From contig CAZSFP010000001.1 of NCBI GenBank assembly GCA_964606285.1, positions 133,376-197,375 on the forward strand: a stretch of 64,000 bases of DNA, read 5' to 3'. The position numbers and the translations under genes were made by a program. Shown in pieces: positions 1 through 46,149 of this stretch (positions are counted from its first letter, which is position 1; every line of letters starts with the position of its first letter). The DNA comes from an uncultured Candidatus Saccharibacteria bacterium (lineage in GTDB: Bacteria > Patescibacteriota > Minisyncoccia > Phycocordibacterales > UBA9973). The notes beneath the pieces were generated by a model. It ran no database searches and was not told where the DNA came from. It saw nothing but the letters and a program-made list of their open reading frames with translations.

Positions 1-175
1 ACATTGCGTATATAATTTTTATTGAACAAACCCGTCTCTACCATAGAGGTACTGGTCGAAACCATGAAATACTGACAGGAGAAAATATTCCGATTAAAAT
101 AATACTGTTTTTTACAAAAAAGTCAAATAAAAAAACTGCCGTTTAGTACGGCAGTTTTTGTTTAAACAATATAAC

Positions 176-3726: not shown

Positions 3727-3760
3727 AAATCTGCGCCATGGCTGAGATTTAAAAATTCGT
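3727..3760. repeat. imperfect palindrome TTTTTAAATCTGCGCCATGGCTGAGATTTAAAAA (GCCATGG-core family, copy 1)
   Basis: seen directly; overlaps the stop of the Cas2-fold gene. Confidence 0.7.
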
Positions 3761-4132
3761 ATACGGTTTCGAAATTTTGAATGTTTTAAATTTGTCTCCT
3801 ATTTTTATTTCTTTCAGGTATTCTAAGAAATGTTTTGGAAGTGGTGATGGTCCAACCCAAACACTTTTTTGAATCATGACATATCCAAACTTTATCAAAT
3901 GTCGACGAAACCAATCGCGCTCCTTTTTCATCTCATGCGGGACGTCATACATGACAATAAGATTCTTTGGACTATCTTCTTTAAAAGGAGATGCGAACGC
4001 AGTACGATAGACGCCTTTCTTTTTAGAAGTACTTTTACTTGTTTCTTTTTTATAATCATCAAAAATTGGTATTCCAAATGCATTGACCCGTACCCCTTTA
4101 TAATAAAATGTTTTTCTCTTTGTTTGAGACAT
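3749..4132 (-). CDS. Cas2-fold / PaaX C-terminal-like domain protein with a Lys-rich N-terminal extension
   Basis: Segment LIVMYDVPHEMKKERDWFRRHLIKFGYVMIQKSVWV matches the Cas2 beta1-alpha-beta pattern (YDI...R...L...G.RvQ.SVF); start placed at the internal Met MSQTKRK; no CRISPR array nearby. Confidence 0.55.
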   Translation of the reverse strand: MSQTKRKTFYYKGVRVNAFGIPIFDDYKKETSKSTSKKKGVYRTAFASPFKEDSPKNLIVMYDVPHEMKKERDWFRRHLIKFGYVMIQKSVWVGPSPLPKHFLEYLKEIKIGDKFKTFKISKPYTNF

Positions 4133-4152
4133 AATAAATCTATTATATATAA

Positions 4153-4184
4153 TTTCTAAATGTGCGCCATGGCGCACATTTAGA
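4153..4184. repeat. 32-bp perfect palindrome TTCTAAATGTGCGCCATGGCGCACATTTAGAA (GCCATGG-core family, copy 2)
   Basis: seen directly; lies between the ogt-like gene end and the Cas2-fold gene start. Confidence 0.75.
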
Positions 4185-7305: not shown

Positions 7306-7869
7306 ATGTCAAGAAAACCTGACTATTCAAAGAAAATAATTCGAATTTTAGGCCAAAAAACGGCTATTTCCCTACCTGAATTGACGGAACGTATAATGCC
7401 TCTAGATGGCTCAAAAATCGCTGTACCCTACTCCGCCAAGGCTTCGCAGGGCAAGTATGCTCTTGCGCGCTCTCTCAAAGGGCTTCGGGAAGCTGGGTTG
7501 GTGGAACATATTTCCTCCGGGCAAAATGAATATGCCCGCCTAACAAAGGACGGTCGCAAAAAAATGTATAGTCTCAAACTCGATAATGAAAATACCCTCG
7601 TTCCAACAACATGGGATGGTTTTTGGCGAATGATTATTCTCGATCTTCCAGAAGAAAGAAAGAATGAACGCGAATCACTCCGGTATCTCCTCAAAAAAGC
7701 TGGGTTCATTTGTTTAAAAAATTCCATCTGGATTTCCCCTCACCCATTTGAACATCTATTCATCAATATTAAAAAAGATCTTGGTCTCACGACAGAGCTC
7801 ATGATTCTCGTCACGGATAAACTTGATCCAGAAACTGAACAGGAATTTCTTAAAGTTTTTGGAAAATAA
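7306..7869 (+). CDS. PaaX-like protein: N-terminal winged HTH plus C-terminal Cas2-fold/PaaX_C-like domain
   Basis: The C-terminal WDGFWRMIILDLPEERKNERESLRYLLKKAGFICLKNSIWISPHPF matches the PaaX_C (WDG.W ... Q.SVW) pattern; paralogous to 3749..4132. Confidence 0.6.
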   Translation: MSRKPDYSKKIIRILGQKTAISLPELTERIMPLDGSKIAVPYSAKASQGKYALARSLKGLREAGLVEHISSGQNEYARLTKDGRKKMYSLKLDNENTLVPTTWDGFWRMIILDLPEERKNERESLRYLLKKAGFICLKNSIWISPHPFEHLFINIKKDLGLTTELMILVTDKLDPETEQEFLKVFGK

Positions 7870-30586: not shown

Positions 30587-30689
30587 CTAAACGTTTCATC
30601 TCCCCTGTTATGACATAGATATATTACAAAAGAATATATATTAGAAATGTCAATAAAAAATCACCCGAATATAGGGGTGATTTTTTTAC

Positions 30690-31115
30690 TCAGATAATAT
30701 CATTCGCTGATGCGGTTGACTCTCTCTCTGGAGCAAAGTGCAATTCTACATGACAATTAAATTCTTTTCTTATCTTTTCTGCAAAATCTCTGACCAATAT
30801 ATCATCGCTCATTTTTTGATATGACAAATAGATCTCATTGCTTTTAATATTGACATACGCAACAGTTCGCGGAAAATGTCTCCAAAATATAAACCAATAA
30901 AGACGAAATTTTCCTAGTGGTTTTTTCTTTAACTCTTCTGATTTCTGTTCTAATTTTTGAATTTGTTCTTCCGTTTCATATTCAACAGGCGATGAAAATG
31001 AGTCAGAAAATGAAACAGAAAAATTACGAAATTCATCTTTTCCCATTATTTCTTTCAATCTTTCTCTTGTTCTGTATCTCCAATCATCTGTAAAAATGAT
31101 AGCTGTCTGTGTCAT
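30690..31115 (-). CDS. hypothetical protein (141 aa)
   Basis: ORF followed by a terminator; no assignable domain. Confidence 0.45.
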   Translation of the reverse strand: MTQTAIIFTDDWRYRTRERLKEIMGKDEFRNFSVSFSDSFSSPVEYETEEQIQKLEQKSEELKKKPLGKFRLYWFIFWRHFPRTVAYVNIKSNEIYLSYQKMSDDILVRDFAEKIRKEFNCHVELHFAPERESTASANDII

Positions 31116-31272
31116 AGTGCTGTTTTTAAGTTTTATAAAACAATATCACAATATGAAATAGAGTCAAATTGATGAATCTCAATAATTTACTTTCCATCAA
31201 AAGTAAATCTCGATCCCCAGCCTCAGTTTTTCTGATTGATATCAGAACATACCTCCGACTTCACCGTGTAGC

Positions 31273-31300
31273 AAAAAATCCCACGCAGGTGGGATTTTTT
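31273..31300 (-). terminator. intrinsic terminator AAAAAATCCCACGCAGGTGGGATTTTTT downstream of tRNA-Glu
   Basis: hairpin with T-tract on the minus strand immediately 3' of the tRNA. Confidence 0.65.
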
Positions 31301-31307
31301 GTCGCGG

Positions 31308-31379
31308 TGACCTCACGGAGAATCGAACTCCGATTAGCGGATTGAGAACCCGCTGTCCTAACCGTTAGACGATGAGGCC
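31308..31379 (-). tRNA. tRNA-Glu (anticodon CUC)
   Basis: Manual fold: acceptor GGCCUCA/UGAGGUC, D-arm GUCU-AACGGUUA-GGAC, anticodon arm GCGGG-UUCUCAA-UCCGC, T-arm CGGAG-UUCGAUU-CUCCG, discriminator A; CCA is not encoded. Confidence 0.85.
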
Positions 31380-31410
31380 GAACAAAACAATAATACTTTT
31401 ATTAAATATA

Positions 31411-31608
31411 GGGTTCTCAATGATTGAGGTCACTGATAATTTTCTACTGAAAATTTCATCGACCCCGGCTCGGCTCGTCAGCCTCCGCCCTTGCGAAATG
31501 GGTCCCTACCCCATTTCTCACCCGCTGTCCTACCTGCCTCGACTCGCAAACACGAGACCTTGAAACTAAAGTGAGTCGACGCGAGGCGGGCCGTTAGACG
31601 ATGAGGCC
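31411..31608. other. rearranged partial tRNA-Glu copy / tRNA-like remnant
   Basis: Exact 18-nt direct repeat of the tRNA 5' end (GGCCTCATCGTCTAACGG) on the minus strand at 31591..31608; an inverted anticodon/acceptor-like fragment GGGTTCTCAATGATTGAGGTCAC at 31411..31433; GC-rich structured filler between them. Confidence 0.5.
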
Positions 31609-31750
31609 AGAAACAAACACAAATATATCATTTTTTTACAAAATTCCCAAAGAAAGACATTATTTGGGATTATTTTCCATGTATTGACTTATTGATATAT
31701 TCATTATAATATTCTTTAAAAGAATTATTGTTGCACCTAATACAATTCCA

Positions 31751-43070: not shown

Positions 43071-44123
43071 TCATGGAGATAGTCTCATTGACGTTAATCC
43101 ACCATTCTTACAGTTATCACATAATCCATTATCAGCAAAGACGGATGTTGGGCTATATACATAAGCTCTCAGACAATTCCTACAAGATCTTGCTGAAATT
43201 GATATAGGATTTACAGTTTGAAATGATTCGGACAATCTAATATCTGTATTCATGATCGAATTCCTTAAATCTGTAGTTTTTAGTACTGCAGGAGAATTAT
43301 TAAGGATAATGGGGTTCGCAGATTGTAATGAAACCAATGCGTTCTCATAATCTACACTGAAAACCCCTGAGGATTGATTCCTCTTCTCTTCAAATTGCTC
43401 AATGGTTTGTTTTTTGTATCCAGCAGAGAAATTCTTATTTAACATTTTCAGTGGATCGAAGTAATAACTAACATCTTTGAATAAAGTCTGAATACTAGTT
43501 GCTAGAATTAAATCATCTCGATTTTTAATCTTTGGATTTTCGGTAAAATCAAAAATATTACCGGTACTAAAAAATAATTCATAATCTTTTTTGTTTTCCA
43601 AGTATTTAACGACCGAAGCAATAATCAAACAGTCTGGCTGTATGTTTTCGTAATTTTTTTTCTCACCCGTAGATTTCTTATAAGGCTTACTTCCTTTTAG
43701 GAACATACAGTAGGCCTGAGTTAAAGCTTCAGGAGTTAGCCTTAAATCATCTCGGATAGTATTAGGGTGTTCAAAAATACTTCTAACATCTTTTTTAATT
43801 TTTTGAATCTCTTTTAAGGTAGTTTCCTTGCCTTGCTGAATTGATTTGGTTAAATTATCTTTAGCTTTTTTGCTTCCGATTGTATTGCTCTTTTGAATAA
43901 TTGTAACCAAATCATTCGCTTCATTATTTATCAACTCAATCTTTTCATTAAACTTTCTTTCAAATTCAAGTTCTATTATTTCCGGTAAAAGAAGTTTAAA
44001 TTTGTTTGCATTTAACAACTTGTTAATTTTTTCTAAAACATCATCACTATTAAATTCAAGATCTAAAAAACATAGGTGTATATAAATATTTGAGTCTATT
44101 AAAACAAATTTTTCTTTTTTCAT
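43071..44123 (-). CDS. PIN-like nuclease domain protein with C-terminal CxxC-x17-CxxC zinc ribbon
   Basis: N-terminal FVLIDSNIYIHL (first PIN acidic residue) and later DCLIIASV; C-terminal CRNC...CDNC. Confidence 0.55.
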   Translation of the reverse strand: MKKEKFVLIDSNIYIHLCFLDLEFNSDDVLEKINKLLNANKFKLLLPEIIELEFERKFNEKIELINNEANDLVTIIQKSNTIGSKKAKDNLTKSIQQGKETTLKEIQKIKKDVRSIFEHPNTIRDDLRLTPEALTQAYCMFLKGSKPYKKSTGEKKNYENIQPDCLIIASVVKYLENKKDYELFFSTGNIFDFTENPKIKNRDDLILATSIQTLFKDVSYYFDPLKMLNKNFSAGYKKQTIEQFEEKRNQSSGVFSVDYENALVSLQSANPIILNNSPAVLKTTDLRNSIMNTDIRLSESFQTVNPISISARSCRNCLRAYVYSPTSVFADNGLCDNCKNGGLTSMRLSP

Positions 44124-44130
44124 ATATTAA

Positions 44131-46149
44131 TTATAGATCTTCTAAAACTCTTACTACGACTGCTTGGACGATCATTTCTTCATTCTCAGTAAACTTCATG
44201 GGCTGGTGTTTTGGATTTGTGGAGCAAGGCTTTAATACAACAACCCCATTTTCTCTATAATACTCTTTTATTGTAGCATCCTCGCCAATAAGTGCGACAA
44301 CTCTATTCCCTATTTCTGGATGATAATTTTTACGGCACAAGACGAGGTCTCCATCATTTATCCCTGCTTTATTCATGGAATCTCCAGTAGTACGAAGTAC
44401 AAAATATTTTGAACCTTTAGAAATATATTCTACTGGAACATCTATCATTTCCTGAACGGTAGAGTCCGCAAACATCAATTCCCCGCAACCAGCCGAATCA
44501 AAAAGCGGAAGCTTTACCATCTGGCCAGCATATGGAGACTTTATTATTTTTGAAGTAATTTCTTTTTTAATGGATGTAACTTCTTTATTTATTATTTCAT
44601 TAAAATAATCTCTCAAACCTTGATCAACGATATAAATATAAGTTCCTTTTATACCGCGAGTTAACAATGTTTTATAAATATTTATTACATATCTTTCAAG
44701 TTCATTTGGGTCAGTAATGCCATTTCTACCATTTATATCAAAATATTTCTCACGATCAACTTTAAATTTTTTATTTACAGGGTCATATGAAAACTCAGGT
44801 CCAATAATAACCCCAACATAGTTCAAATCATAACCTTGAACTGTATGTATACAACCAACTTCATTTATAGCATTGGGTGAATTAACCCAGTCTTGAGCAA
44901 CGGAATTCCAGACCAATTTCAAGTCACCTATTTCAATATCATAATCACGAGTTCCCTTTGCGGTGTGCCATGGCCACGCATAACCAGCAACAACGCGGGC
45001 CAATTTATGCTTTTTGTCTTTTTCTTTAATTTCACTAACCATTTGCTCTGCATTATCGAATATTTTAAAATCATAATTTGAGAAACTTGTATTTTGGGGT
45101 ATTTTTAAATCAAAAATGTCTTCAATAAATTTAATGTACTCTTCGCCTGCTTCAACACGCATCTGAGAATTCAATTCATATTTTTTAGCATTTAATTTTC
45201 TAAAATCTTCAGGACGAATATCAGCTGGTTTTATACTTTGATTTTCATCATAAAAGAAAATTTGGTTTTTTGACGACTTCATAATCCAATCAAGTTGTGT
45301 GCCATTATTATCCAAACCAAGTCCCCGACTTACATTATCAAAAGCTCCATAACCCATAATACCTTTTCGTCTTTGTAGTCTATGTGATTCATCAACAATC
45401 AATAAGTCATATTTATCTTTTACAACATCATTTGGACCAATAACCATATTTGATTTTAATCCTTTTATTTTAGAAAAAACTCTAGCAATTGTTTTTCTAA
45501 GTGAGGCCATTGGTACAACAAGACCAATATTCATATTTTTTGTTTCTTCCTGTTCTTTGAGGTATTTAAAAAGATATGTAGCTAAAATTGTTTTACCTGT
45601 ACCCGGTTTACCATTTACAATAAAAGTATTGTATTCATTCTTTTTTATATCCTTAAAAATCTGTCTAGCGACAGTAAACTGATCTTCTGTTAGAGACTTG
45701 TATGGTGAGTATTTAAATAAATCACTATTTTTTAAATCCTCGAGAGTATTTTTTACTAAACCCATCTGTCGTAAATTTTCCCAAGCTATTTCAAACTTTG
45801 CTTTGTACTTTACCTTGTCGTAATAATTATGATTCTTTAAACCCCCATTACTATTCTGTAAAATAAACTTTTCGTCAGCAGAAATATACTGAATTAACCA
45901 AGACTCGATATCAAAAGCGGCAGAAATGTTAAATTCTTCATCAGTAATAATATGAATTTCTTTTAACTTCGCTCTTTCCGGATTTTCATAATGTTGCTTA
46001 CTTCGAAAATAAGCGTTCACTGTTTGACCAATATAAACTTCCTTCTTGTCTTCTAAAATGTAAACAACAGGCCAATTTTTACCAAATTTAAAATTCTTAA
46101 TTTGATCAAAATCCTCTCTATTAAATGGAAAAGTTTTTATTTCAGACAT
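44131..46149 (-). CDS. three-domain fusion: GIY-YIG nuclease + DUF2075-like SF1 helicase-type P-loop NTPase + LexA/UmuD-like S24 peptidase
   Basis: GIY-YIG: VVYILEDKKEVYIGQTVNAYFRSKQH...E. NTPase: Walker A GKPGTGKT, DExH-like LLIVDESHRL, IHTVQGYDLNYVGVII. S24: candidate Ala-Gly cleavage site (DSAG/CG) about 35 aa upstream of TGDSMNKAGINDGDLVL...TIKEY (Ser/Lys dyad). Confidence 0.7.
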   Translation of the reverse strand: MSEIKTFPFNREDFDQIKNFKFGKNWPVVYILEDKKEVYIGQTVNAYFRSKQHYENPERAKLKEIHIITDEEFNISAAFDIESWLIQYISADEKFILQNSNGGLKNHNYYDKVKYKAKFEIAWENLRQMGLVKNTLEDLKNSDLFKYSPYKSLTEDQFTVARQIFKDIKKNEYNTFIVNGKPGTGKTILATYLFKYLKEQEETKNMNIGLVVPMASLRKTIARVFSKIKGLKSNMVIGPNDVVKDKYDLLIVDESHRLQRRKGIMGYGAFDNVSRGLGLDNNGTQLDWIMKSSKNQIFFYDENQSIKPADIRPEDFRKLNAKKYELNSQMRVEAGEEYIKFIEDIFDLKIPQNTSFSNYDFKIFDNAEQMVSEIKEKDKKHKLARVVAGYAWPWHTAKGTRDYDIEIGDLKLVWNSVAQDWVNSPNAINEVGCIHTVQGYDLNYVGVIIGPEFSYDPVNKKFKVDREKYFDINGRNGITDPNELERYVINIYKTLLTRGIKGTYIYIVDQGLRDYFNEIINKEVTSIKKEITSKIIKSPYAGQMVKLPLFDSAGCGELMFADSTVQEMIDVPVEYISKGSKYFVLRTTGDSMNKAGINDGDLVLCRKNYHPEIGNRVVALIGEDATIKEYYRENGVVVLKPCSTNPKHQPMKFTENEEMIVQAVVVRVLEDL

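Follow-up and report, generated by a model that had tools for sequence, protein, structure and literature searches.

A single working tRNA-Glu(CUC) gene beside a broken partial copy at a strain-variable locus of a Patescibacteria genome

Among the described systems that come closest to a transfer RNA (tRNA) gene lying beside broken pieces of its own sequence, the Rickettsia palindromic elements (RPE) are reportedly palindromic insertion elements inside genes, as Ogata et al. are said to have found in 2000, and the REP/REPIN elements go with RAYT transposases. Disrupted tRNA genes are known from archaea, for which the passages of PMC10714607 that cite the Fujishima/Kanai work deal with non-canonical introns of the bulge-helix-bulge (BHB) type and with the split tRNAs of Nanoarchaeum. 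For genomic islands, the Islander survey (Hudson, Lau & Williams 2015; PMC4383910) describes a configuration in which a full tRNA gene (tDNA) is accompanied by its cognate end fragment in the same orientation (upstream if it is a 5' fragment, downstream if a 3' one), demands a tyrosine integrase gene within or overlapping the interval and an island length of 2-200 kb, places the crossovers in the anticodon loop, the T loop or the T/acceptor junction, and records displacement of a 5' fragment in 159 of 3919 islands. Here we compare with these systems a locus in a 64-kb stretch (hereafter the window) of contig CAZSFP010000001.1, from an uncultured, ultra-small bacterium of the Candidate Phyla Radiation (CPR), in which an intact tRNA-Glu(CUC) gene is adjoined at its 5' side by a segment (31380-31608) that holds a broken partial copy of the same tRNA. 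The locus holds one working tRNA-Glu gene and the segment is not a second one; we propose, with moderate confidence, that the segment is a non-functional insertion-duplication at the 5' end of the gene, i.e. a recombination scar.

A single tRNA was called by ARAGORN across the 64 kb, namely the tRNA-Glu(CUC) gene on the minus strand (31306-31379), which is also recognised by the Rfam tRNA model (31308-31379, 58.2 bits, E 5.7e-10) and which both programs support as a functional gene. Read 5' to 3' along the minus strand, the locus begins with a promoter and leader (P2) and continues with tRNA positions 1-18, a 58-nt hairpin, tRNA positions 20-32, 55 nt of GC-rich sequence, an AT-rich hairpin, the reverse complement of tRNA positions 66-74, the triplet ATC, the reverse complement of positions 29-39, an AT-rich leader of 31 nt, the intact tRNA and its terminator. 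The upstream copy is made up of tRNA positions 1-18 and 20-32, interrupted by the 58-nt insert and ending in the anticodon loop; its 31 retained bases are all identical to those of the adjoining tRNA (31/31), and it has neither a T arm nor an acceptor 3' strand in the right orientation. The window has just two exact copies of the 18-mer GGCCTCATCGTCTAACGG (i.e. the acceptor 5' strand, the D-stem 5' strand and part of the D-loop), one at 31362-31379 and one at 31591-31608; they share the minus strand and lie at a distance of 229 bp. Two matches were obtained in none of 100 shuffles of the window, and a repeat of 18 nt in none of 2000 dinucleotide shuffles of the flank. The 13-mer TAGGACAGCGGGT (tRNA 20-32, minus strand, 31520-31532), which covers the D-stem 3' strand, the anticodon-stem 5' strand and the first loop base, is a second exact direct repeat, of a length reached in 1 of 2000 shuffles. 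The insert between these two pieces (31533-31590, minus strand) is a GC-rich hairpin that sits in the D-loop of the pseudo-copy and replaces one base (T19); it folds as a plain stem-loop with flanking unpaired bases at its base, and together with its flanks it folds no better than shuffles (z = -0.2). An earlier note on this DNA had reported the 18-nt repeat in the same orientation, which is borne out here, and had not listed the second direct repeat, with which (positions 20-32) the copy resumes past the insert. The alternative offered there, a tRNA pseudogene whose D-loop carries a large insertion, is a correct account of how the upstream copy is built.

The segment also stands out in composition, the GC content being 59-60% across 31450-31599 as compared to 20-31% in the immediate flanks and 40% in the whole window. 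Past the stub (i.e. the broken upstream copy) comes a GC-rich stretch (31465-31519, minus strand, 59-60% GC, without any relative found) that includes a hairpin (GAAATGGG/CCCATTTC, 31495-31517), both of which had been pointed out before, and then an AT-rich hairpin (GGUCGAUGAAAUUUUCAG...AUUAUCAGUGACC, 31428-31464, minus strand), which is present in both the minimum-free-energy and the centroid folds and is not a clear terminator, since no T-run comes after it. The inverted anticodon-loop and acceptor fragment that the earlier note had placed at 31411-31433 is likewise real: on the plus strand it consists of tRNA positions 29-39, GAT and positions 66-74, the 11-mer GGGTTCTCAAT (31411-31421, positions 29-39) being of a length reached in 5 of 2000 shuffles and the 9-mer TGAGGTCAC (31425-31433, positions 66-74), which alone would be met in 95 of 2000 shuffles, lying 3 nt from it. 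The two 18-mers are separated by 211 bp, and 140 bp lie between stub position 32 and the start of the intact gene. Taken together, the repeat structure is beyond chance. The AT-rich leader immediately 5' of the intact tRNA (leader X, 31380-31410, minus strand) may have its own promoter, a promoter-like site (GTGACC-17-TATATT, 31433 to 31405) being found near it; it bears a weak resemblance to the proximal part of P2, and it stands upstream of the tRNA in none of the other strains compared. P2 itself (31609-31655, minus strand) shows an extended -10 TGATATATT within a promoter-like site (31650 to 31622) that possesses the TG motif.

Sister-strain contigs (same species, other samples) were retrieved through exact-protein look-ups. 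By its match to these strains, P2 appears to be the ancestral promoter and leader of tRNA-Glu: in L004, whose penicillin-binding protein (PBP) gene is 97% identical at the nucleotide level, P2 runs straight into GGCCTCATCGTCTAACGG-TTAGGACAGCG, i.e. into a normal, uninterrupted CUC-type D-arm (98% identity to the window over the 53 nt of P2 and tRNA positions 1-18), while in L011 (SRR32910799), which has the same 136-aa neighbour gene, it runs straight into a tRNA-Glu(UUC) (L011 1-110 against window 31591-31660, 95.7% over the 70 nt of the block of P2 and positions 1-18). Since a normal tRNA follows P2 in these strains, the window can be seen to break exactly behind position 18. A composite of L011 and L009, which come from the same sample, was called tRNA-Glu(ttc) by ARAGORN. 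Two further contigs (L008 and L003) carry the same flanking genes in DNA that is 84-97% identical, have the tRNA-Glu(CUC) inverted and under another promoter and terminator, and lack both the GC-rich segment and a 141-aa gene that lies near the tRNA in the window; L008 is 95.7% identical over 93 nt spanning the tRNA gene and its immediate flanks. The stretches concerned (L008 1294-1367 and L003 8087-8130, against window 31290-31382) have the appearance of a local inversion or replacement of ~100-200 bp. In L009 and L010, which possess the same 141-aa gene, extra genes (188 aa; MBL-fold, 213 aa) lie between it and the tRNA, whereas L005, which encodes an identical 141-aa protein, has the terminator palindrome with no tRNA attached. 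Over 1538 bp nearby, the identity between L006 and the window is 100%; a contig from SRR16481187 shows 100% identity over window 31203-29666. In L004 a different gene adjoins P2 on its upstream side, and the DNA just upstream of P2 (2940-3060) is moderately GC-rich and non-coding, with an AAGCAGC that by eye recalls signal recognition particle RNA and gave no Rfam match.

Since P2 meets an uninterrupted tRNA in L004 and L011, and the tRNA is inverted and free of GC-rich DNA in L008 and L003, the block of 229 bp is, judging from these comparisons, a strain-specific indel bounded by 18-nt direct repeats; the comparison with related genomes that the earlier note had called for thus found close relatives devoid of this arrangement. 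The strains differ here although the adjacent PBP gene remains 84-97% identical at the nucleotide level, and on this evidence the locus is a recombination hot spot, at which tRNA orientation, isoacceptor and cargo genes vary among close strains. Furthermore, the CUC and UUC forms of tRNA-Glu share positions 1-26 and the T arm and evidently swap positions by recombination, as P2 precedes the UUC gene in L011 and the CUC gene in L004, which points to an exchange between paralogues.

No second tRNA was recovered by the model searches. ARAGORN at default thresholds, with and without intron mode, called only the intact gene at this locus (extra calls appeared only at noise-level thresholds), this being the check that the earlier note had proposed for it. 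Over the whole window at gathering scores Rfam returned only the tRNA, and on the related loci only the intact tRNAs; on 31200-31750, with E up to 10, it returned the intact tRNA and no group I intron, ribozyme, T-box, tmRNA or second tRNA. By a narrow margin, the fold of the segment surpasses those of shuffles (z = -2.2 for the minus strand, -3.0 for the plus strand). The upstream copy has the characters of a truncated tRNA pseudogene, in that it shows tRNA homology, fails the tRNA models and has lost the T arm and the acceptor 3' strand. It resembles the truncated pseudogenes that occur beside paralogous tRNA genes (as in tandem CUC/UUC pairs of tRNA-Glu) in these respects and in adjoining a functional paralogue, here of tRNA-Glu, and departs from them in the perfect identity of its pieces to the neighbouring gene, in the 58-nt D-loop hairpin and in a GC-rich filler for which no relatives were found.

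Other candidate identities were tried and rejected. An archaeal-type BHB intron or a split tRNA would call for a 3' half in the right orientation, of which there is none; inspection of the fold showed no BHB, and ARAGORN with the -i option found the intact gene only. A group I intron in the anticodon loop was discarded (Intron_gpI unmatched by Rfam at E up to 10, no 3' exon), as was a T-box or other tRNA-sensing leader (no Rfam T-box, and the downstream gene is the tRNA itself); a T-box-like antisense pairing fails as well, the reverse complements of positions 66-74 and 29-39 being spaced by 3 nt and in the wrong order. A hammerhead-like CUGANGA motif spotted by eye found no support in Rfam. 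The D-arm (GTCTAAC...GTTAGGA) was also considered as an integron attC/attI site, and this was set aside as the insert has no initial TT and there is no IntI; a homing spacer of a CRISPR-associated transposon was excluded by the orthology of P2 and positions 1-18 to a real tRNA start in sister strains.

When set beside the tDNA-plus-fragment pairs of the Islander survey, the locus is alike in having an intact tRNA accompanied on the correct side by an end fragment in the same orientation (positions 1-18, and 20-32, 229 bp upstream on the same strand), in its variability and cargo genes, in the break of the whole stub at 32/33, in the anticodon loop, and in the presence of an empty site, given that in L004 and L011 P2 is followed by the uninterrupted 5' part of the tRNA. 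It is unlike them in that the fragment is a 5' one, the interval measures 211 bp (140 bp from stub position 32) as against 2-200 kb, the 18-mer ends in the D-loop, outside the known crossover sites, and there are an extra hairpin, an inverted mini-fragment and no integrase. With the 18-mer and the whole stub ending in different loops, the position of a crossover is ambiguous. A Pfam scan of the 74 open reading frames (ORFs) of the window (63-871 aa, roughly two dozen of them without any Pfam match) gave no integrase, recombinase or transposase domain (0/74), so that the integrase which the earlier note had proposed to look for elsewhere on the contig was not encountered within the 64 kb. An attP-like partner was met neither in IMG/VR nor in the phage collection, and no relatives of the GC-rich filler were met in the window, in the JGI metagenomes and IMG/VR (exact patterns) or in phages and plasmids (blastn); a 63-aa ORF that runs across the insert has no homologue and is absent from the protein collection. 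Because the fragment is a 5' one, the interval is 211 bp, no recombinase is found in the 64 kb and the 18-mer ends in the D-loop, we find no support for the notion that an integrative element left a classic att-site scar here, the defining tests for an integrase island having failed. The earlier description of the locus as a footprint of integration or recombination holds in so far as the block is a strain-specific indel at a probable recombination hot spot, and does not hold as regards the att site.

The JGI metagenomes were scanned for positions 1-18 followed by a non-tRNA base (a pattern that by itself imposes the shared 5' junction). Thirteen loci were obtained, nine of them normal tRNA-Glu(CUC) genes with variant D-loops (including L016, which has a tRNA-Glu fragment just downstream), and a distant CPR contig (L015, Ga0315282_10096202) was the sole real analogue. 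L015 displays a promoter, the identical 18-mer, a 43-nt GC-rich hairpin and TAGGACGTCGGG, then what remains of an anticodon arm, the loop of which is mutated, a further 5' stub (GACGCTATCGTCTAGTGGTCAGGACGTATGGTT, the second) with unrelated sequence after it and, at the end, an intact tRNA-Glu(CUC) of a different sequence type, the stub positions 22-33 matching this local tRNA. The D-loop hairpins of the window and L015 have common ends (5' CCGCCT..., 3' ...CAGG) and a common base (2 bp, a 1-nt bulge and 6 bp); nothing is conserved between the two loci beyond the tRNA-derived bases and the hairpin ends, and L015 lacks any equivalent of the acceptor-like closing stem that is predicted for the window. 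L016 (a Microgenomates-like contig) shows a normal tRNA-Glu(CUC), 3 nt, CAGGTT, a hairpin of the L015 type and positions 35-73 of a UUC-type tRNA-Glu, with an acceptor 3' strand (TAGCGTC) that is the exact complement of the 5' strand in the second stub of L015; a composite of the L015 stub and the L016 fragment was called tRNA-Glu(ttc), with a perfect 7-bp acceptor stem. Both the second unit of L015 and the L016 fragment break in the anticodon loop, at 33/34. Judged by these contigs, other genomes too have broken tRNA-Glu copies with a hairpin in a loop beside an intact CUC gene.

As to their extents, the L015 piece (2424-2471) is a 5' part (positions 1-33 and the start of the insert) and the L016 piece (1388-1472) a 3' part (positions 28-33, a 42-nt hairpin and positions 35-73) of the same UUC type, each adjoining an intact tRNA-Glu(CUC). 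Compared with the disrupted archaeal tRNA genes, these loci have in common the inserts in the D-loop and anticodon loop and, in L015/L016, the separation of 5' and 3' parts; they are different in the bacterial host, the lack of BHB, of a complementary leader and trailer and of a matching 3' half, and in the intact gene that adjoins. The comparison with REP and RPE elements is similarly divided: a short imperfect palindrome sits precisely within a gene (in the window, within the loop of an RNA gene) and a similar hairpin occupies the same site in L015, whereas the window has within its 64 kb neither a multi-copy family (no further copies of its hairpins were found) nor a cognate transposase, so that the test for a REP/REPIN-RAYT or IS200/IS605 palindrome failed there (single copy, no Y1 transposase). 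L015 does carry a Y1_Tnp gene (1594-2238, IS200-like/RAYT-type, Pfam E 3e-6, within 1530-2278) directly upstream of its tRNA-Glu locus; it is flanked by three copies of a palindrome (TTAGGGGTTAAACCCCTAA) unlike the D-loop hairpins, and a RAYT link was rejected on account of these different palindromes and of the lack of a Y1_Tnp relative in the window. The hairpin apex common to L015 and L016 (CCCGACTTARTCGGG) is no marker of a family, because it occurs as an ordinary stem-loop in unrelated viral contigs, once in a terminator-like setting.

Several other observations were made during these scans. The left part of the L015 contig has a GC content of 60-74% and the right part of ~33%; a Lon protease gene stands next to the L016 tRNA, a synteny that is not conserved. 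Two of the JGI loci (L013 and L017) lie within a G6PD gene and a gene of the beta-lactamase family, respectively, and were discarded as chance matches, and the pattern of positions 1-18 plus a non-tRNA base gave in IMG/VR only a phage tRNA-Glu with a variant D-loop. On the GC-rich contig L020 (10669-10753) the same 18-mer belongs to a tRNA-like sequence with an anticodon loop of 15-16 nt and a non-matching acceptor 3' strand, which in the intron mode of ARAGORN comes out as tRNA-Val(gac) with a 10-nt intron. On another GC-rich contig (L022, 3241-3258) an isolated 18-nt 5' stub of tRNA-Glu lies ~40 nt downstream of a tRNA-Arg and is followed by a partial repeat of GTCTAACG, with no integrase in the 3.5 kb examined.

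The indel, the identity of P2 with the sister-strain promoter, the variable nature of the locus and the singleness of its tRNA can be read from the alignments and model searches above, and the mode of recombination behind them would, in our view, be the following. DNA with homology to the tRNA-Glu 5' end (either what was left of a larger element, or else a fragment or small circle acting by a Campbell-type single crossover) would have recombined with the chromosomal gene, so that the original P2 and the first 18 bases (32 when counting across the hairpin) ended up farther upstream, as a stub without function. Between the repeats there would have come to lie some 211 bp of DNA that is GC-rich and forms hairpins, with a scrambled inverted piece of tRNA, and the gene would have been restored downstream with a new AT-rich leader. 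Transcription from P2 (perhaps joined by that from a weak promoter in the new leader) may read through into the tRNA, in which case the sole consequence would be a 5' leader longer by ~230 nt that is removed by RNase P. The event would be recent, rather than the decay of an old paralogue, because the repeated pieces are 100% identical and the GC content is unameliorated. Several points weigh against such a scar: the Pfam scan of the ORFs found no recombinase of any kind in the 64 kb, 211 bp falls far short of what an autonomous element would need, and the source of the GC-rich DNA was found in none of the collections searched (JGI metagenomes, IMG/VR, phages and plasmids). Moreover, the polarity of the indel could be read either way, L004 possibly representing a deletion between the 18-nt repeats; the 13-nt piece (positions 20-32) beyond the hairpin means that this was not a simple crossover within the 18-mer; and the distant L015 presents the same layout, with a hairpin of similar ends at the same D-loop position, which a one-off accident would not predict.

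These difficulties give some room to other explanations, foremost to that of an old tandem pair of tRNA-Glu genes behind P2 (e.g. UUC then CUC), of which the redundant upstream copy was struck by a hairpin and lost its 3' part, L004 being derived by deletion between the shared 5' segments. Adjoining CUC and UUC genes are found in many of the tRNA arrays retrieved (L014, L018, L019, L021, L023 and L024), broken UUC-type copies lie beside an intact CUC gene in L015 and L016, the occurrence of P2 before UUC in L011 and before CUC in L004 amounts to an exchange between paralogues sharing positions 1-26, and leader X is weakly like the proximal part of P2. We nonetheless think this origin unlikely, as an old dead copy should drift, while the pieces are identical at 18/18 and 13/13 positions and the filler stands at 59-60% GC in an AT-rich setting, as the 13-mer is of the CUC type and not of the UUC type, and as nothing past position 32 is like the 3' half of a tRNA. 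Rather less probable is that a tyrosine-integrase island, one of the rare 5'-displacing type, left a remnant here; it would have crossed over in the anticodon loop, supplied the new promoter and positions 1-32, and later had its interior deleted to ~140 bp (with loss of the integrase gene) and gained the hairpin. A 5' fragment that lies upstream of the tRNA and points the same way is what the Islander rules ask for, and the stub end at 32/33 is a known crossover site (PMC4383910); the inverted piece represents the anticodon stem-loop and the acceptor 3' end, both of which are kept in att sites; the tRNA is flanked by cargo genes that are specific to the strain; and the breaks of L015 unit 2 and of the L016 fragment (33/34) are in the same loop. 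This explanation is burdened by the want of any integrase in the Pfam scan of the 64 kb, by an interval of 140-211 bp that is far under the 2-kb minimum, and by the negative search for an attP-like partner in IMG/VR and the phage collection, and it leaves the L015 hairpin at the same D-loop site unexplained.

That hairpin would be accounted for if small palindromic elements (REP/RPE-like or intron-like) insert into the loops of CPR tRNA-Glu genes and had in this way killed the upstream copy, the rest of which decayed. The window and L015 share the D-loop position, the similar ends and the base architecture, and the L016 hairpin, placed in the anticodon loop of a tRNA-Glu(UUC) fragment, is built like that of L015 with a near-identical apex; we still regard such insertion as improbable, given that no other copy of the window hairpins occurs in the 64 kb, that the apex CCCGACTTARTCGGG is an ordinary stem-loop in unrelated viral contigs, that the L015 Y1 transposase is flanked by different palindromes and has no equivalent in the window, that the likeness at the 5' junction is imposed by the search pattern, and that there are three examples only. 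A functional structured RNA (i.e. a leader or small RNA derived from tRNA-Glu, with an extra D-loop arm, co-transcribed with tRNA-Glu(CUC) and selected in CPR) seems to us very improbable: the order of parts recurs in the distant L015, whose intact tRNA is different and whose pseudo-copy matches it at positions 22-33, the segment is GC-rich in an AT-rich setting and its fold modestly surpasses shuffles (z = -2.2 minus, -3.0 plus), yet it is absent from all four sister-strain arrangements, its conservation with L015 is limited to tRNA-derived bases and hairpin ends, no Rfam model matches, and the acceptor-like closing stem of the window is missing from L015. Least credible of all, and in our opinion hardly worth entertaining, are a second bona fide tRNA with introns, a split tRNA half and an assembly artefact. 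Hairpin inserts in the D-loop and anticodon loop do recall the non-canonical introns of archaeal tRNAs, but a right-orientation 3' half, a BHB and a group I intron are all lacking and ARAGORN in intron mode was negative at default thresholds; as for an artefact, the source is probably a metagenome assembly, but the repeats of 18 and 13 nt are shorter than assembler k-mers, both junction flanks match the organism's own tRNA, and L006 agrees with the window at 100% over 1538 bp nearby.

Turning to the surroundings, the intact gene is followed by a long palindromic hairpin (31258-31310), read as its terminator, which has perfect arms of 13 nt each (31272-31284 and 31289-31301) and overlaps the 3' end of the tRNA (TCACCG). 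In L005 the same palindrome has longer arms and is joined to no tRNA, which suggests that the junction in the window arose by a deletion at the shared TCACCG, resembling a microhomology deletion. The 141-aa gene (window 30662-31289; L005 1-223; L009 30-1640) belongs to an accessory cassette, has no Pfam match, is absent in L008 and is preceded by a long perfect palindrome; L009 and L010 add to it the 188-aa and MBL-fold genes. An imperfect inverted repeat of 24 nt (83% complementary, 31386-31409 and 31709-31732) brackets the stub, the filler and P2; its right arm coincides with the 5' region of the 136-aa lipoprotein gene, and chance is a possible cause in AT-rich sequence. The wider neighbourhood is composed of housekeeping genes (ftsA, ftsZ and trxB on one side; PBP, mraW and mraZ on the other). 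Among named organisms, the best relatives of the neighbouring PBP are those of Candidatus Nomurabacteria and other Patescibacteria, and a scan of genome contigs with this protein gave relatives at 25-27% identity only. In 18 long ORFs of the window GAA codons outnumber GAG codons (490 vs 107), and since the 64 kb hold one tRNA gene, a tRNA-Glu(UUC) gene should presumably lie elsewhere in the genome. Two further features are unrelated to the tRNA locus, i.e. a PIN_12 protein adjoining a fusion of a Schlafen-like helicase and an S24 peptidase (43071-46149), possibly a defence pair, and two small proteins with a PaaX/Cas2-like domain (3749-4177 and 7306-7869), near which there is no CRISPR array.

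In kind the locus is familiar, being a variable site at which a tRNA gene is paired with a pseudogene or a displaced fragment, and it is unusual in detail: in its 5' polarity, in its tiny interval, in a D-loop hairpin with a counterpart in another CPR contig, and in the swap of UUC and CUC genes behind one promoter. For the most part its message is one of annotation, namely that there is one functional tRNA-Glu(CUC) and that the adjacent GC-rich block is not to be annotated as a gene. Beyond this, the locus appears to mark a strain-variable recombination hot spot in a CPR genome, and the apparent exchange of promoters and positions between isoacceptors from strain to strain, in a genome that is streamlined, bears on the turnover of tRNA sets and small islands in Patescibacteria. 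It is doubtful that the hairpins in the D-loop at 18/20 (window and L015) and in the anticodon loop at 33/35 (L016) constitute a recurrent module of CPR tRNA-Glu genes with the standing of a family or a function; were it real, the module would be a tiny site-specific mobile palindrome or an intron-like insert, and the unit of promoter, stub and hairpin might be kept, e.g. because it yields a processed leader RNA or because, as a decoy, it keeps an integration site occupied. If the pattern of these three contigs did prove to be a family, it would represent a bacterial counterpart of the disrupted tRNA genes of archaea.

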